Origin: a virus
Direction: 5' to 3' (one strand)
Virus genome (UHGV): UHGV-1617644
Length of the DNA stretch: 11,654 nucleotides
Shown: one piece after another, positions 2,437 to 9,971 of the stretch
Numbering within the stretch: position 1 is the first letter of the stretch
Layout of the letters: every line of letters begins with the position of its first letter
Translations under genes and position numbers: made by a program
The notes under the pieces: model-generated
Told to the model about the DNA's origin: nothing
Seen by the model: only the letters and a program-made list of their open reading frames with translations
The model's database searches: none

Positions 2437-2789
2437 TACGCCTCCGATGTAACAGTCGTTATTCCATAAAGAGTGTCGATTTCAGCGGAAAACATGACAC
2501 GTCGGGTCGTGGTATCCAGCGTCGTATTGAAAGAGAGGATTGATTTAACGCCCTGCGTTTCGAGGATGCGCTTACGGATCGCCAGGTTGTAGGTTTCCGG
2601 CTTCTGCTTACCGAGTACGGACTGGATCCACGGAGTCCCCTCGGTGGTGTCGAGAAACCATTGCCCATACCACAATTCGAATCGCGTTTTTACCGCCTGC
2701 GCCACGGCCTCCGGTGAGTTAATCAGCCAGGTGTCATCACCGCAGCCAAAGGTGTAATCGCCATCGGCGTCTTCACGTCTGTATCGCAT
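2436..2789 (-). CDS. Baseplate wedge/assembly protein (117 aa; gpW / gp25-position equivalent)
   Basis: Translationally coupled between the spike and baseplate-J genes; size typical of gpW-like proteins. Synteny only; sequence not recognised. Confidence 0.5.
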   Translation of the reverse strand: MRYRREDADGDYTFGCGDDTWLINSPEAVAQAVKTRFELWYGQWFLDTTEGTPWIQSVLGKQKPETYNLAIRKRILETQGVKSILSFNTTLDTTTRRVMFSAEIDTLYGITTVTSEA

Positions 2790-3541
2790 CAGTTTACCCC
2801 GTCGGTACTGCTTTCACCGCGCTGAACACCACCATGAGTGTGCGTATCATCGATTGGCTTGCCGTTAGCCTTCACGCTCCCCAAAAACTCAACAGCACCA
2901 GTGATTTTTGAAGCCACACCAGAAACCACAGACCCCACCATGCCCCCCATCCAGGTTAACAGGCCATGAATGGTTACTTTCTCAGAAAAATCAGCCAGGG
3001 GGGCAACCACATCAAGCCCCCCCGGAGCGACAATTTTAATTTTCCTGGTATCAGGATTAAGCTCAAAATAGGTGCTGCCGTCGTCACTACGCAACTGTGT
3101 GGCACTGGTATTAATACCGCTAATCTTCCTAGCCTGCGACTGGGGACCGACAATACAAAACGCATCCGATAAATCATGCATTCTGTCATCGACCGGCTCC
3201 TGTATCCCGCCACTCTGCCACCAGAAATCAATACAACGATCGGCAAAAACGACAAGACACTCATCCCCGGCTTTAACCGGAAAAGTCAACGTACAGCCTC
3301 CGCCGCGCGGAAATACCACTGGCACATCCACCAGCAACGGGTAATTTTTGGTAATGCGGTTACCGTCGTTATCCTTTTCAACCGAACGGATAGCTGGCTG
3401 CACAACCGCCGTCACCGCGTCGGGATCGAATGACTGAACAATGCCAGGCAAGGCGACACGGATCTGGTTCTTTGTTGTTTCCCGTTCAGATTTGAATGTT
3501 TCGGCAAGGTCGCCGCTGCGGGTCTGGTCAGATACTGCCAT
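2789..3541 (-). CDS. Baseplate central spike protein (250 aa; P2 gpV / Mu gp45-like position)
   Basis: GGAG 8 nt before ATG; first gene of the spike-wedge-J-I-fibre block; C-terminal Gly-rich region with a THTH motif that I recall resembling the His-containing apex of gpV-type spikes. Confidence 0.6.
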   Translation of the reverse strand: MAVSDQTRSGDLAETFKSERETTKNQIRVALPGIVQSFDPDAVTAVVQPAIRSVEKDNDGNRITKNYPLLVDVPVVFPRGGGCTLTFPVKAGDECLVVFADRCIDFWWQSGGIQEPVDDRMHDLSDAFCIVGPQSQARKISGINTSATQLRSDDGSTYFELNPDTRKIKIVAPGGLDVVAPLADFSEKVTIHGLLTWMGGMVGSVVSGVASKITGAVEFLGSVKANGKPIDDTHTHGGVQRGESSTDGVN

Positions 3542-3560
3542 TTAGTAGGCTCCAGAAAGC

Positions 3561-3590
3561 AAAAAACCCGCCAGATGGCGGGTTTTTATT
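3561..3590. terminator. Rho-independent hairpin terminator, bidirectional by sequence (AAAAAA-CCCGCC-AGAT-GGCGGG-TTTTTATT)
   Basis: Perfect 6-bp GC-rich stem (3567-3572 / 3577-3582), 4-nt loop, A-tract upstream and T-tract downstream. On the minus strand it reads CCCGCC-ATCT-GGCGGG-TTTTTTGCTTT, about 20 nt after the 131-aa stop. Confidence 0.65.
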
Positions 3591-3606
3591 AATAAATCAG
3601 TTAGAC

Positions 3607-4002
3607 CTAAACGGCTACATCAGTCTTCATTTGTTCCCATTGAGAAAAAATTGTTTTTACTTCCAAGATTGATTGTTGTGCCATTGCTTTATTTATGCCA
3701 CAACTACTTAAATCATAATCAGCCTCATTCCGAGCTAACCTCTGTTGCTCAAGTTTGTAAGCCATAGATTTTAGACTTCGAGGATCATAGGGTTCCAGTT
3801 TATTTTCTCCCTTATTTTTAAGATAAGAGATAAGGCTGGCATGATGATCCCGAGTATAAGCAGGAAGACTAGTTAGATTATCTTTAATTTCATGGTAGAG
3901 AGCGTAATATGCTCGTGAAATAGCATTACGATAACCAATCTCACAATCTTCAGCAAAACAACGTTCGGCCGAAGACAAAAACTCAGAACTAGTTATAGGC
4001 AT
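3607..4002 (-). CDS. Small alpha-helical protein with HEPN-like signatures (131 aa), second gene of the cassette
   Basis: ATG at 4002 lies inside the last codons of the 256-aa ORF; weak SD AAGAG. Contains RAYYALYHE (residues 30-38, an R-x6-H spacing) and LARNEADYD (residues 89-97, R-N-x3-Y where HEPN families usually have R-x4-6-H). Assignment is from recalled motif patterns, not an HMM hit. Confidence 0.7.
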   Translation of the reverse strand: MPITSSEFLSSAERCFAEDCEIGYRNAISRAYYALYHEIKDNLTSLPAYTRDHHASLISYLKNKGENKLEPYDPRSLKSMAYKLEQQRLARNEADYDLSSCGINKAMAQQSILEVKTIFSQWEQMKTDVAV

Positions 4003-4759
4003 ATTTACACTCTTTTAATCCATTTCTTTCAACGGAAAATCTTGCTATCAGGTTACAATCATCAAGCAAATCGATCGAGCAGATTTCATCAGCAAGTCGC
4101 ATATTCATTGCAACAACCCGCTCTGGAGACGCCTTAACCACCTCAACCAAATACGTTCCACCAGACGCCCCGTTAATGTCCGCGCGATATTCAGTTGACG
4201 GGAATTCAGCCATAACTCTGTGCACAGCCAAGGCAACTTGCCTATATTGCTCTGAAGAGCACCCTGAATTTTTATAAGCTTCATCCATATCGTTAATTAC
4301 CTCCTGCAAGAAGGTTTCTGCGTCATCCCTATGCTCTTCTTCGGATAACATTTTGCAATGACGCCCTAAATACTCCACGCATTTCGATAGTTTCCCTACC
4401 AAGTACGCAACGCCGCCAGCTTTGTAAGTAAACCACTTTGTAGGAAACTTATCAGCTAAAGAATATATGTAGTAATCCAGTTTTTCGAGTAGAGAAAATC
4501 GCTCGAGAAGTTTACAAAAGATCCGTGCGAAATTAACGTCAGCATGTGGAAGGATGACCTCAAGCGACTCAATCCCAAAGAGCACCTCACCCTTAGCTAT
4601 ATAAGCCAACGCTACAAGTGCTTCAGCCATAGGAGTATGATTAGAACCATACTCCGAAACCACTTCTCGGAAAGTCCACATATCAAGTGGCTCCCCACTG
4701 TTGATTACATTAATCAACTGGTCAAAACGCTCTTCGGCTTTTAGTTTTGGTCTCGCCAC
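3989..4759 (-). CDS. Hypothetical protein (256 aa from GTG at 4759; alternatively 230 aa from ATG at 4681), first gene of a two-gene cassette
   Basis: Low-GC ORF with no motif I recognise; no nucleotidyltransferase GSxxRG...DxD motif and no CxxC zinc-finger spacing. GTG at 4759 has a weak SD; the in-frame ATG at 4681 has GGGGAG 9 nt upstream. Its 3' end overlaps the next gene by 14 nt. Confidence 0.7.
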   Translation of the reverse strand: MARPKLKAEERFDQLINVINSGEPLDMWTFREVVSEYGSNHTPMAEALVALAYIAKGEVLFGIESLEVILPHADVNFARIFCKLLERFSLLEKLDYYIYSLADKFPTKWFTYKAGGVAYLVGKLSKCVEYLGRHCKMLSEEEHRDDAETFLQEVINDMDEAYKNSGCSSEQYRQVALAVHRVMAEFPSTEYRADINGASGGTYLVEVVKASPERVVAMNMRLADEICSIDLLDDCNLIARFSVERNGLKECKYAYN

Positions 4760-4789
4760 AGTTCACTCACTACTTATTTTTTGTCAGAT

Positions 4790-4817
4790 TTTATGTTCGC
4801 GTATACAGTTTAGTCAA
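4790..4817 (-). promoter_or_regulatory. Candidate sigma70-type promoter for the two-gene cassette (-35 TTGACT, 16-nt spacer, -10 CATAAA)
   Basis: Read on the minus strand in the 173-bp AT-rich intergenic region upstream of the 256-aa ORF: TTGACT (4817-4812) and CATAAA (4795-4790). The -10 matches consensus at only 4/6; judged by eye. Confidence 0.3.
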
Positions 4818-4932
4818 TCCACATCTGATCTACTTAGTAGTTTCGCACAAAATCCCCCTTAGAAAATGAATCTCTAGATTTTACTACGAGCCCATTTCCC
4901 TGAAAAATCGAGGATTTTCTACTCTAGTGCCA

Positions 4933-5394
4933 TTAGAACCCTTTTGATTTTGCAACACGAATACCACCAGCCCAACCATTAAAATCAATCACATTACTAC
5001 CGGGGACAGGATTATTTGTGTTGAAAGCATATCTAGCACCAATTTTCCATGCTTGCGGACTAACACTAGGATCCTTTGACAGTTTTATCCACTCTTTCAT
5101 ACCGTTGTAAATATATTCCTGACAAGAATCCCGGGTTCCTTTGCGGTTGGTGTATGCGTCCAAATCATTACATTGCTGGAATGTGTTCCTGATGATGTCA
5201 GCGAAATCATCTAAGGTCATTGTAAAACGTCGCCCATTCATTGAGAAAAAAGGCTTCACAGATGCGTAATGTTGCCATTCCGTAAACTTTTGCTGCTCCA
5301 TCAGGTCGGCTGCTTTAAATTCAAACTTACCTGGTTCGGCAAAAGAAGTCGTAGAAATCAGCATCGTTATTGCAACTATCACCTGTTTTTTCAC
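4933..5394 (-). CDS. Secreted/periplasmic protein of unknown function (153 aa), accessory gene
   Basis: Classic Sec signal peptide MKKQVIVAITMLISTTSFA|EP; two Cys in the mature part (possible disulfide). GTG start 2 nt after the hub TAA with GGGGAG 7 nt upstream, so translationally coupled. Gene is visibly more AT-rich than the flanking tail genes. Confidence 0.7.
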   Translation of the reverse strand: MKKQVIVAITMLISTTSFAEPGKFEFKAADLMEQQKFTEWQHYASVKPFFSMNGRRFTMTLDDFADIIRNTFQQCNDLDAYTNRKGTRDSCQEYIYNGMKEWIKLSKDPSVSPQAWKIGARYAFNTNNPVPGSNVIDFNGWAGGIRVAKSKGF

Positions 5395-5396
5395 GC

Positions 5397-6461
5397 TTAC
5401 GCTCCCCGTTGCATTGCCAACTGGCTAGGTATATCGCTAGCCCCACGCGCTTCGCACATCATATCCATGTACCACGCCTGGCCCCTTGTGTCGCCAGTGT
5501 ACATAATCCCGCGAACAATATAAACGCCATCCGTTGCGATGCTGGCAGGCTGCGATGTGGTGCCGCTTAGCGTAATATTTCCGTCCGTGTTCTGGTCGGT
5601 GATCTGCCCACCAGCCATCGCAATATCGTTGTTCGACAACGCGGTACGATAGACGGAAGCCTGATCCAGCTGAATGAGCCCGTTAACCCGGATGTTCGGA
5701 TTAATAAGAGCGCGGACGTTTACGCCGTTGCCGATGGTCTGCTGCGGCATGCCAATAAGCCCGGTAGCACTGTTGAGCACAATCGCTTCGTGAACATATT
5801 CATTAGTCGCCACCATCTGGCGCTGACCGTCCACGAATTGCCATGTTGCGCCACATTGCCCGGCTACGTTATCCATTAGATGCCGCGTCATGCCAAAGAG
5901 CACCCGCCCCCGGGGGAATACAGTAGCAGGCATTTCAGGCGTCAGGCCTTCGGTCACACCTTTGGCTTCGAAGTCTTTCATCAGCGCACGGTTCACATCA
6001 GCGACCGTGTAACCGGCAGCCAGCGTCTGTGAGGTTATACTGGTGGCAAAAGCCAGATCAGTATCTGCTGCCTGAATCAGGACGTAGGAATCAACCGGAC
6101 TGTCTTTTCCTGTGACCGAGTAGCGAATTTCACCGCTGAAAATCAGTCCGTAGTTGCGCCCATCACTCTGGCCCACGTCCGCCGCGTCAACTTCCCGCAC
6201 TGTCCCGACGTCGCTTGCCGACACCTCCGGCGCGATACCGTCGTAACCCGCAATCAGACGCACTTTCGAAAACTCCTGCCCGGTAATTCGGTTCACAGTA
6301 TCTGCCGAAAGGTTATAAATTTTGATAGTCCCTACCCGGGACGCGCTGCTGATGTTGAACCAGTCGATCGTAAAGGTGACTTTAAAATCACTTAGCTCAA
6401 TTCCCTGACCGTTCCCGTCCACAAGCTGCAGCTCGAAATGTCTCATCCAGTTCTGTGACAT
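5397..6461 (-). CDS. Baseplate hub protein (354 aa; Mu gp44 / P2 gpD-like position)
   Basis: GGAG 5 nt before ATG; position immediately before the spike module and size fit a hub protein. Synteny-based call. Confidence 0.6.
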   Translation of the reverse strand: MSQNWMRHFELQLVDGNGQGIELSDFKVTFTIDWFNISSASRVGTIKIYNLSADTVNRITGQEFSKVRLIAGYDGIAPEVSASDVGTVREVDAADVGQSDGRNYGLIFSGEIRYSVTGKDSPVDSYVLIQAADTDLAFATSITSQTLAAGYTVADVNRALMKDFEAKGVTEGLTPEMPATVFPRGRVLFGMTRHLMDNVAGQCGATWQFVDGQRQMVATNEYVHEAIVLNSATGLIGMPQQTIGNGVNVRALINPNIRVNGLIQLDQASVYRTALSNNDIAMAGGQITDQNTDGNITLSGTTSQPASIATDGVYIVRGIMYTGDTRGQAWYMDMMCEARGASDIPSQLAMQRGA

Positions 6462-7353: not shown

Positions 7354-9362
7354 TAACCCACCCTCACCTGATTACTTCGCATGACCTGAGCATTTGCAGA
7401 CTGTTGCCGACGTGCAACCTCATTACCGACAGCGTGCGGATCTCCGCCACCGTAAATGTGGTAAGTATTTTGCTGGTTAACCTCTGTCATTTTGCCACTA
7501 ATTCCCGCCACGGCAGCCTTATTAATCAGCTCTCGAGAATAGATATTTCTTCCATTTTCATGCTGGATAATGCTGCTCATCAATGCTGACATGGTTTGCG
7601 GATCGCTCATATTCAGGGCAGCCCGGGGATCCACTCCCAGTCGTTGCGATACAGCCCTGATATACGCAGTTGTGTTGTTATTATCAGACGCAGGTGCCCA
7701 GGTAGAGATAATTTTCTCCACACTGTTTATTCCCCGTCCGGCGTACAGCATTAACTGACGAGCAAGAGCCCGTAATCCATCAAAAGCAGTTTCAAATCTG
7801 GCAAATCGCCCGCCCGGGCGTTCAAGAGAAGCCCCTGCCTGACCAGCAAAATTAAGGTTTCCCGGATTGTTATTCCGTTCTCCTCGTTTCGTAGCCTGTG
7901 CATATTGTTCCGGCTCATCATCACCAAACCAGCCGCGTACCGTCCGGCCCACACTGCGGGGATCGAATCCCCAGTGCTCTTTAATCCAGTCGGCAGTACT
8001 GTTAGCGCTGTCTGTAACCATCGGCATCGCTGACGGATTTTCGCTGCCCTGATTAAGTATCTGTTTGCCGATGCTGACGGCATCAGCCCAGCGGCCATCT
8101 TTGATAGCGTTGAGCAGGTCGGCGATCATGTTCAGCATTTTGCTGAATTCGCCCATCTGGTCGATGAAGTTGCTGAAATCCCACTTCAGGGACCATGATT
8201 TGGGGTCAATATTGAGCAGTTTCGCCAGCGCTTTCACCAGTTCATTAACAGACCCTTTCAGGTCACGAACCATCTTCAGCGCGGCATCGACCTCCGGCTT
8301 CCACTTGCCCCAGTCAATCAGGCTGTCGCCGCCTTCCTTCCAGGTCTGATAGTCCTCCCACAGAAGGGCAATCCCCGCCGCCAGCGCGGTAATGAGGCCA
8401 ATCGGCGACATCCAGAACGTACTGTTCAGAATGCGCAGCGCAATCGTCAGCGCGCCAAACAGCGAGATGAGCTCCCGCGTTTGCTTATCCAGCGATTGCC
8501 ACCAGGTGATAAGGCTGGATGTTCCCTCAATTAGCCTGAAGAACAGCCGCCCGATGATGTCTCCGAGCGCCAGAATGCCTTTTATGGCTTTCGTCAGGGT
8601 CTGCTCGATGCGCGGGAAGTTATCGAGGATGTGGCGGCGCAGTGTGTCCAGCGAACCCGCCAGACCACCAGCAAGATTAGAGCCGATTTTGTCACGGGCC
8701 ATGCCTGCCATCGCGCCGAACTCGCGCAGGGAGGTCATAAATTTGTTGGAGCTTCTGGCCGCCTCGTCAGCATTGAAGCCGATAGCTTTCGCCATTGCGC
8801 TGTACTGCCCGGAGAAGCCACCCACACCCCGGCGCATCGCCATAAGGGTATTTTCGTCAATGCCCAGCATCTGCGCATACTGGTTAGCCCGGTAATACGG
8901 CATGCCGCTGAGCTTCTGGCCTACACCTGTAAAAATAGAGGCCATGTCACGCATGTTACCGCTGGCATCCCGTGTCTGTACCCCTAGGCGATTCAGAAAT
9001 CCCTCTGCACCGGGATTGTTACGAATAAACCGGGAGAGGCTTTCCAGAGAAGAGCGCGCAGCGTCTGCACTGCCGCCAACCTGCGAAACCGCATAGCCAA
9101 TAGACTGAATTCCATGGACCGTCGCGCCGGTGCGCTGTGACGCCCAGTAAAGATTATCCAGACCGGAGGCGATCTTAGCCGTGAAGGCCACCACGGACAG
9201 TGCAGTTCCTTCGACGGCCAGCCCCATTTTGATGACATTTGCAGTTGTACCGGCGAGGACAGAACCGAACTTTTTCGCTCCTGCATCATCCACACTGAAG
9301 CCAAGCGAGACGAGGAAATCTTTAATAGTTTCAGCGTTCATTATCCTATCTCCATTTCTCAA
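7353..9362 (-). CDS. Tail tape measure protein (669 aa by track; likely true start at the ATG at 9341)
   Basis: Longest ORF, directly after the chaperone/frameshift pair; Ala/Gly/Ser-rich with hydrophobic central segments (e.g. LISLFGALTIALRIL..., IGLITALAAGIALLW). GGAG lies 8 nt before the second ATG (MNAETIK...), so the first 7 codons of the track ORF are probably not translated. Confidence 0.85.
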   Translation of the reverse strand: MRNGDRIMNAETIKDFLVSLGFSVDDAGAKKFGSVLAGTTANVIKMGLAVEGTALSVVAFTAKIASGLDNLYWASQRTGATVHGIQSIGYAVSQVGGSADAARSSLESLSRFIRNNPGAEGFLNRLGVQTRDASGNMRDMASIFTGVGQKLSGMPYYRANQYAQMLGIDENTLMAMRRGVGGFSGQYSAMAKAIGFNADEAARSSNKFMTSLREFGAMAGMARDKIGSNLAGGLAGSLDTLRRHILDNFPRIEQTLTKAIKGILALGDIIGRLFFRLIEGTSSLITWWQSLDKQTRELISLFGALTIALRILNSTFWMSPIGLITALAAGIALLWEDYQTWKEGGDSLIDWGKWKPEVDAALKMVRDLKGSVNELVKALAKLLNIDPKSWSLKWDFSNFIDQMGEFSKMLNMIADLLNAIKDGRWADAVSIGKQILNQGSENPSAMPMVTDSANSTADWIKEHWGFDPRSVGRTVRGWFGDDEPEQYAQATKRGERNNNPGNLNFAGQAGASLERPGGRFARFETAFDGLRALARQLMLYAGRGINSVEKIISTWAPASDNNNTTAYIRAVSQRLGVDPRAALNMSDPQTMSALMSSIIQHENGRNIYSRELINKAAVAGISGKMTEVNQQNTYHIYGGGDPHAVGNEVARRQQSANAQVMRSNQVRVG

Positions 9363-9971
9363 TGCGCCGCTGGTTATCCGCTTTTACCGCCAGATGGTCA
9401 TTCAAGAGAGCAATGTCGTACAAATCGACAGAGCCATCTTTAAGTGCTGTATAAGGAATTAACCCGGCGTCAACCGGATTGAGAAGGTAGGACAGCCCGT
9501 CCGGCAGGCTGTTAAACGTCAGCCCTGTTGCAGACTCTGCGTCGTGCTGGTAAGGGGTGTAGGCAAAAAATTTCCCAGCGAATCGGCGACCACCCGCGCC
9601 ACCAGCTGCAGCATGACCAGCAGGTCAATATCATCAAACATCAGTTCGCCCTTGGTAAATACCGGCACCCATCCGTCCATATGACGCCGCGACACCACCG
9701 CAAGACAGGGATGAATAATCGCTTCGGTGTCATCTTCGGTCAGGGAAGACAGTTCCTCAGCGATACGCGGGAGCATGGTTTCAAACACCGGTTTTAACTG
9801 CTCGAATTTCACGGTTTCGATTTTGCCGTCAGCAGGCAAACGGGAGCGAATGCTCCCGAAATCTGACATCATTCCCGCCAGTACCGGCAGAAGTTTGCGG
9901 GTCACTTTCAGCTGGTCAAAAACGCTGAGTTTTGCCACGCGATATTTCACGCCTTTAATTTCGAATTCCAT
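9346..9971 (-). CDS. Predicted -1 frameshift fusion product of the chaperone (GT / E+E' analogue, about 208 aa)
   Basis: Hand translation: the -1 frame is open for 75 codons from the slippery site to TAG at 9348-9346 (KFFAYTPYQHDAESATGLTFNSLPDGLSYLLNPVDAGLIPYTALKDGSVDLYDIALLNDHLAVKADNQRRIEKWR); the +1 frame hits TAA almost immediately. This ORF has no ATG, so it is absent from the supplied ORF track. Confidence 0.55.
9519..9971 (-). CDS. Tail assembly chaperone, short in-frame product (lambda gpG / P2 gpE analogue, 150 aa)
   Basis: Lies between tube and tape measure; GGGGAG 9 nt upstream of ATG; a slippery heptamer sits near its 3' end and an open -1 frame runs into the TMP start (see frameshift features). 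Confidence 0.7.
   Translation of the reverse strand: MEFEIKGVKYRVAKLSVFDQLKVTRKLLPVLAGMMSDFGSIRSRLPADGKIETVKFEQLKPVFETMLPRIAEELSSLTEDDTEAIIHPCLAVVSRRHMDGWVPVFTKGELMFDDIDLLVMLQLVARVVADSLGNFLPTPLTSTTQSLQQG
9564..9576 (-). promoter_or_regulatory. Programmed -1 ribosomal frameshift slippery site (mRNA GGGAAAUUUUUUG)
   Basis: In the chaperone frame the codons are CUG GGA AAU UUU UUG, so G_GGA_AAU fits the X_XXY_YYZ pattern, with overlapping A_AAU_UUU and U_UUU_UUG heptamers. As I recall it, lambda G/GT uses the near-identical G_GGA_AAG. Confidence 0.55.

Follow-up and report, generated by a model that had tools for sequence, protein, structure and literature searches.

A HEPN-domain gene and a gene for a TPR-like partner as a predicted toxin-antitoxin-like cargo module of an Escherichia coli prophage

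The 11,654-nucleotide (nt) stretch of the virus genome UHGV-1617644 analyzed here (hereafter the window) corresponds to the tail and baseplate module carried by an Escherichia coli prophage and matches the E. coli chromosome NZ_CP180607.1 at 100% identity. The module is encoded on the minus strand in the order sheath, tube, tape measure, hub, spike, sheath initiator, baseplate J and wedge; between hub and spike, three extra genes are inserted, which encode proteins of 153, 256 and 131 amino acids (aa). The last two genes, which overlap, are the subject of this report (Table 1): the 131-aa product is predicted to be an RNase of the HEPN superfamily, and the 256-aa product is modeled as a TPR-like α-solenoid followed by a small α/β domain.

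Table 1. Positions of the two-gene module, its control elements and its neighbors in the window
Feature	Position	Strand	Remarks
256-aa gene	3989-4759	-	GTG start at 4759; stop codon 3991-3989
TPR-like α-solenoid (residues 1-185, modeled)	4205-4759	-	ten helices (residues 8-185) in about five hairpins
C-terminal α/β domain (residues 186-256, modeled)	3992-4204	-	β-β-α-α-β (residues 191-243)
Internal ATG (Met27, codon 27)	4679-4681	-	GGGGAG 9 nt upstream
131-aa HEPN-domain gene (predicted AF0298-like HEPN-T)	3607-4002	-	predicted RNase toxin/effector
σ70-like promoter	4788-4817	-	TTGACT-18 nt-TAAAAT; 10/12 consensus matches
Intrinsic terminator	3562-3587	-	11-base-pair stem, then T-run; closes the two-gene unit
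153-aa gene	4933-5394	-	first of the three extra genes
Hub/spike slot	3542-5396		variable cargo hotspot
Baseplate hub gene	5397-6461	-
Spike gene	2789-3541	-

The 256-aa open reading frame (ORF), first pointed out in a sequence-only reading of this DNA, is present in the list of ORFs of the window, and an identical coding sequence with the same start is annotated by PGAP in NZ_CP180607.1. That it is a real gene rather than a chance ORF follows from the existence of full-length homologues down to ~18% identity and from the pattern of differences to the 88%-identical E2348/69 copy, which fall mainly at third codon positions (16, 11 and 82 differences at the first, second and third position, respectively). 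The sequence-only reading had left the start ambiguous between GTG 4759 and ATG 4681; both candidates exist, the latter preceded by its GGGGAG element as described, but the ambiguity itself is settled by homologues, upstream stop and coding signature, which resolve the start as GTG 4759. This codon lies one codon past an in-frame TGA and is therefore the first possible start. The peptide that it opens, MARPKLKAEER, is nearly invariant in the ten closest clusters, the helix of residues 8-21 belongs to the confidently modeled fold described below, and the alignment to PHROG 17809 begins at residue 1. All relatives open at the corresponding residue: starts at the homologous position are GTG in E2348/69 and Yersinia pekkanenii and TTG in a metagenomic siphovirus, and distant relatives have an ATG there with a good Shine-Dalgarno sequence, such as GGAGG at locus L025. 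Moreover, codons 1-26 differ from the E2348/69 copy with the same coding signature as the remainder of the gene (3, 0 and 9 differences by codon position). ATG 4681 was rejected as a start: it is ATT (Ile) in the E2348/69 copy and variable in other relatives.

The two genes are organized as a self-contained unit. The promoter ends 29 nt upstream of the GTG and is base-for-base identical in the E2348/69 locus despite differing surroundings, the ATG of the 131-aa gene (4002) lies inside the 3′ end of the 256-aa gene, giving a 14-nt overlap (3989-4002), and a hairpin equivalent to the terminator is found 3′ of the pair in Klebsiella phage ST405-OXA48phi1.3. A search of the cassette for repeats found none, and Rfam returned no match at gathering score, all sub-threshold matches being on the terminator hairpin; an RNA antitoxin within the cassette was rejected.

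The product of the downstream gene belongs over its full length to PHROG 5176 (E 4.3e-36). Pfam HEPN (PF05168) is matched by 6 of the 10 members of its family alignment, with a best E-value of 1.1e-11 that may belong to a fragment of the solved HEPN structure 9xbd, because this fragment is itself one of the ten members; compared with the Protein Data Bank (PDB), the family profile matches the HEPN chains 9xbd (E 0.003; also 9xbc) and AF0298 (PDB 2hsb; E 0.0044). Residues R30, Y32, Y33, H54, R91, D95 and Y96 are invariant in the family over deep divergence, also relative to 9xbd, and the motif that ends on the last of them, R91-N-E-A-D-Y96, is R-x4-Y and not the canonical Rx4-6H. In a survey of the superfamily, AF0298-like HEPN-T proteins were described as having lost the histidine of Rx4-6H while keeping the arginine and as carrying a second conserved histidine in an insert between helices 2 and 3, a feature shared with AbiV; for this second histidine, a part in an alternative active site of the RNase was proposed (PMC3710099). 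The same combination is found in the 131-aa protein, where the arginine is kept, the usual histidine is lost and an alternative histidine lies between helices 2 and 3. Its sequence thus predicts an AF0298-like HEPN-T with an alternative active site consisting of Arg91 together with His54, Asp95 and Tyr96; since the canonical histidine is missing, catalysis by this HEPN is a prediction.

The tyrosine in place of that histidine, the weak HEPN match and the inactive HEPN domains already known (PMC3710099) would also suit a catalytically inactive protein, in which case the two proteins would form a complex that binds nucleotides, RNA or protein and regulates without being toxic. This appears unlikely, however, considering that R91, H54, D95, Y96 and R30 stay invariant across deep divergence, that exactly this configuration was read as an alternative active site in the published analysis (PMC3710099), and that the neighbors occupying the same slot in other prophages, described below, have a toxin-antitoxin flavor. 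As to the solved structures, the sequences of 9xbd and 9xbc differ from Tyr to Phe at the position aligned with the invariant Tyr96 of RNEADY, which suggests that this tyrosine is under study; literature searches on PDB entry 9xbd and on UPF0332 returned nothing relevant.

The upstream protein is a full-length member of PHROG 17809 (E 1.3e-49; residues 1-255 against positions 2-256 of the 258-position profile). As PHROG 17809 and PHROG 5176 are both annotated "unknown function", membership in them is functionally uninformative, and all sources label the 256-aa protein hypothetical. It has no match in Pfam (even at E ≤ 1), NCBIfam or PADLOC (PADLOC-DB v2), and a phmmer search of the PDB returned just a designed coiled coil (E 0.17). 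The family is rare: 10 clusters were found by a word-seeded search among 5.8 billion sequences and 56 representatives (E ≤ 1e-3) by an exhaustive profile search among 1.84 billion proteins, the full-length ones measuring 248-286 aa and about a dozen being fragments of 71-147 aa; it occurs in 10 of 5426 complete E. coli genomes and in one of 50,697 phage records.

An AlphaFold2 model of the protein, computed from a ten-sequence alignment, has a predicted local distance difference test score of 89.3 and a predicted TM-score of 0.85, and contains a solenoid of stacked antiparallel helix hairpins of the TPR type (Pfam clan CL0020). The C-terminal α/β domain that follows is without a clear structural match, and its fold is not confidently assigned; comparison with the nucleotidyltransferase fold and with the type II KH domain, which has α-β-β-α-α-β topology and a GXXG loop between its two helices, gave no confident assignment either. 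At the level of sequence, the family profile (51 sequences) matches designed PPR/TPR chains in the PDB by summing weak repeats, and Pfam TPR_1/2/8 weakly match 6 of the 51 relatives (best E 5.9e-6), with no above-threshold match of a TPR hidden Markov model to the window protein; in BFVD, two proteins of similar size from uncultured siphoviruses are structural look-alikes over the full length. The statement that the protein has no recognizable family, made in the sequence-only reading, is partly supported: it stands as far as curated functional families are concerned, but the protein has a TPR-like fold, belongs to PHROG 17809 and has an informative genomic partner.

A motif search bore out the further statement that Walker A, nucleotidyltransferase and zinc-finger-type (CxxC) signatures are lacking: it found no Walker A, CxxC, HExxH or G[SG]x9-13DxD nucleotidyltransferase motif, a regular expression for the Pol-beta nucleotidyltransferase motifs hG[GS] ... 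[DE]h[DE]h was negative, and Pfam NTP_transf_2 gave no match. Alignment of the 51 family members leaves zero invariant columns; conservation is highest in a TPR-like "ALA..A.G....A...FE" and in a "MN..LA" of the C-terminal helix. Because no residue is invariant in the family, the 256-aa protein probably acts by binding and not by catalysis, and catalytic-type residues are confined to the HEPN member of the pair. It is in this light that an enzymatic antitoxin has to be judged. Type VII HepT/MntA is the characterized DUF86 branch of the HEPN-MNT pairs, and the C-terminal domain could be a divergent minimal nucleotidyltransferase (MNT) that AMPylates the HEPN as in that branch, for instance at Tyr96; with neither a catalytic motif nor an invariant acidic residue in the 256-aa family, such an activity is considered very improbable.

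The two genes are strictly linked. Co-occurrence of homologues with the 131-aa partner, which had been put forward as a check of the sequence-only reading, is seen in all 27 loci with a 256-aa relative (about ten distinct lineages): in each of them, the HEPN gene, encoding ~126-131 aa, is directly downstream on the same strand with an overlap of 4-17 nt. A hallmark of type II toxin-antitoxin systems, two small co-directional, overlapping and co-inherited genes, is therefore present in 27/27 loci. The linkage persists to ~20% identity of the 256-aa protein and 34% identity of the HEPN, and the identities of both proteins to the window copies co-vary with a Spearman rho of 0.97 (n=15 non-independent pairs); a genome scan for related loci with a narrow alignment gave one locus. 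In the deepest pairs the 256-aa protein has diverged faster than the HEPN (~20% vs 34-39% identity). This higher conservation of the HEPN, together with the consideration that a downstream position alone does not prove a toxin, might be taken to mean that the roles are reversed and that the HEPN regulates, or gives immunity to, a 256-aa effector; yet the 256-aa family is without invariant residues or catalytic motifs and it is the HEPN that keeps a catalytic-type constellation, so that a reversal seems hardly credible.

Two annotations of the pair in Klebsiella phage ST405-OXA48phi1.3 (MK416008.1, locus L027) stand out. At 3749-4144 the HEPN gene is intact there, its 131-aa product matching the family profile with E 1.4e-49, but the deposited record has in its place two short ORFs (3804-3935 and 3932-4147) that are read in a different frame, a mis-annotation. 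The annotated start of the 256-aa homologue appears to be ~10 codons too late.

The pair is found in at least four phage contexts, which belong to several unrelated types of phage. It occupies the hub/spike slot in this type of myovirus and at locus L025; elsewhere it lies near siphovirus tail genes, either beside an MliC gene in a metagenomic siphovirus (loci L004 and L005) or upstream of the tape-measure gene; in further cases it follows an antiterminator or is placed at a prophage end near icd. The MliC-domain gene (2409-2753 in L004 and 2494-2736 in L005), which encodes a membrane-bound lysozyme inhibitor, is another moron-type cargo in the tail cluster. Within the window, the three-gene insert has a GC content of 37-43%, lower than the 50-57% of its flanks, and comparison with loci L003, L028, L029 and L030 identifies the slot as a variable cargo hotspot. 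Only 10 of the 306 E. coli genomes that have this phage backbone region, recognized by flanking sequences in common, carry the pair; in other E. coli prophages the slot holds a 190-aa gene with a YafO-family toxin, a DUF2335 gene, a lone 241-aa gene or an overlapping pair encoding 243 and 142 aa, these alternative cargo genes all being annotated hypothetical.

Such a distribution also bears on whether the pair serves the life cycle of the phage itself, for example as a controlled RNase that targets transcripts of host or phage during lytic growth, or as an accessory of tail assembly, with the TPR-like protein as adaptor or chaperone. This is doubtful in view of its presence in so few of the genomes with the backbone region, where other cargo takes the same slot, of the unrelated places that it takes in other phages, among them one behind an antiterminator and one at the end of a prophage, and of its own σ70 promoter, terminator and foreign GC content.

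The reading preferred here, with a probability of roughly 0.55, is that the two genes make up a prophage-cargo ("moron") module of the toxin-antitoxin-like or abortive-infection type, in which the HEPN would be the effector and the 256-aa protein is its predicted non-catalytic partner. It rests on strict synteny, co-divergence and the catalytic-type residues of the HEPN, on the TPR-like, protein-binding fold of an upstream partner that is acidic (isoelectric point 5.0), on a moron-like anatomy with the pair's own promoter and terminator and a foreign GC content, and on the varied phage contexts and the variable slot. In the lysogen, both genes would be driven by this promoter, and translational coupling through the HEPN ATG, within the last codons of the upstream gene, would mean that no HEPN is made without its partner. 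The partner would then bind the HEPN physically and hold it latent, until it is released, in the manner of a toxin-antitoxin system when the partner is lost, or in that of abortive infection when a protein of an invading phage captures the TPR surface; the freed, toxic HEPN RNase would arrest translation, with an anti-phage effect in the latter case. If the partner binds the HEPN, a trigger of phage origin or both, the TPR surface is the obvious candidate site.

Several observations weigh against the preferred reading. The HEPN assignment of the window protein itself is below the curated Pfam cut-off (PF05168, E 0.0023; 18.5 bits vs 22), and PADLOC adds a weak match to HEPN_IX (E 0.003) and nothing more; its canonical Rx4-6H histidine is missing, and with an isoelectric point of 5.9 it is not basic. 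The 256-aa protein is matched by no PADLOC model and has no recognizable DNA-binding domain of the helix-turn-helix, ribbon-helix-helix, AbrB or Phd kind, while typical type II antitoxins contain a DNA-binding domain for autoregulation. Finally, the GTG start with its weak Shine-Dalgarno sequence is unexpected for an antitoxin that is needed in large excess.

A more specific proposal, which is no better than tentative, is that of a minimal abortive-infection system in which the TPR-like protein is antitoxin and sensor at once: its solenoid would recognize an incoming phage protein and thereby release the AF0298-type RNase, and its C-terminal domain, possibly a remnant of an ancestral MNT partner, would hold the HEPN inactive. 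If true, this would represent a non-enzymatic replacement of MNT and a new link between phage sensing and HEPN toxins.

RNases of the HEPN type recur as effectors in toxin-antitoxin, CRISPR and abortive-infection systems, and the central question for every new HEPN family is how it is kept latent and how it is triggered. If validated, the pair would extend the known immunity or addiction systems of prophages by a compact two-gene module of ~1.2 kb, and would offer a tractable model of TPR-mediated control of a HEPN with a non-canonical R/H/Y active site. A practical gain is that the gene start is fixed and a HEPN mis-annotation is flagged in at least one phage genome (MK416008.1).

Two other regions of the window may be mentioned. 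The 153-aa ORF, directly after the baseplate hub gene, has a signal-peptide-like N-terminus (MKKQVIVAITMLISTTSFAEP...) and is matched by nothing in Pfam, PHROG, NCBIfam or PADLOC. In prophages whose slot has other cargo, its place is taken by a gene of comparable size (154 aa, WP_126927342.1), and in E2348/69 by a different 113-aa gene; the ORF appears independent of the HEPN pair. In addition, within 9362-9971 (minus strand), ~155 nt between the 150-aa gene (9519-9971) and the tape-measure start (TTG 9362) are apparently non-coding; a frameshift-extended tail assembly chaperone is usually located there.

HEPN-T proteins are usually paired with or fused to MNT nucleotidyltransferases (PMC3710099). 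The module resembles these HEPN-MNT pairs in that a small HEPN gene immediately follows, and overlaps, the gene of its partner, and in that the HEPN is of the predicted AF0298-like HEPN-T subgroup (PF05168); it differs from them in the partner, which is here a TPR-like solenoid with a small domain, 256 aa long and without a nucleotidyltransferase motif, so that no nucleotidylation chemistry is expected in this pair. By analogy, the TPR-like protein is best read as standing where the MNT antitoxin stands in the classical pairs. For other HEPN families, fusions or shared operons with TPR or Sel1 repeat proteins have been noted, namely for LA2681 and AbiU2, the latter with a Sel1-repeat gene (Anantharaman et al. 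2013, PMC3710099). As here, a HEPN is coupled in the genome to an α-solenoid repeat protein, and a repeat protein as HEPN partner thus has computational precedent, none of the examples being characterized; in contrast to the present pair, LA2681 and AbiU2 keep the canonical Rx4-6H and are different families, and no sequence relationship of either to the window proteins was found.

In RnlA-RnlB and LsoA-LsoB, an anti-phage HEPN toxin of the RNase LS type is checked by a non-enzymatic protein antitoxin. The concept of a HEPN RNase with a dedicated protein antitoxin is the same as that proposed here, but the genes are ordered differently, the proteins have other sizes and folds, and they are not homologous; these systems are included in the HEPN survey (PMC3710099). 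HepS of Gifsy-1, Tha/Ith, RemAIN and AbiV likewise illustrate a HEPN nuclease as a prophage accessory that is latent until infection, and lactococcal AbiV shares the alternative-histidine configuration of AF0298-like HEPN-T proteins. HepS is a solo HEPN with a canonical R100-H105 and no partner (PMC13043305), and Tha of Staphylococcus aureus phages is inhibited by a small antisense-encoded protein in the Ith system (PMC11087260). Sequence searches of the PDB detected no similarity of HepS, Tha/Ith, RemAIN or AbiV to the window proteins, and a TPR-like partner is present in none of the four; HepS, Tha and RemAIN were rejected as candidates for the same system, being analogues from other HEPN families with a canonical Rx4H. 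DS-28, a validated system from DefensePredictor (163-aa HEPN WP_000528930.1 and 252-aa WP_000494510.1), was judged unrelated by eye, with the opposite gene order and a canonical RNSVAH motif in its HEPN; neither the window proteins nor those of E2348/69 were found by accession in the parts of the supplements examined, and literature searches for HEPN-TPR pairs returned nothing relevant and no paper describing this pair.

In summary, the module is not a member of the HEPN-MNT, RnlAB, HepS, Tha/Ith, RemAIN or AbiV families; what is new here is a TPR-like protein in the place of the MNT partner of a non-canonical HEPN, in a module that is rare, cleanly delimited and tractable.
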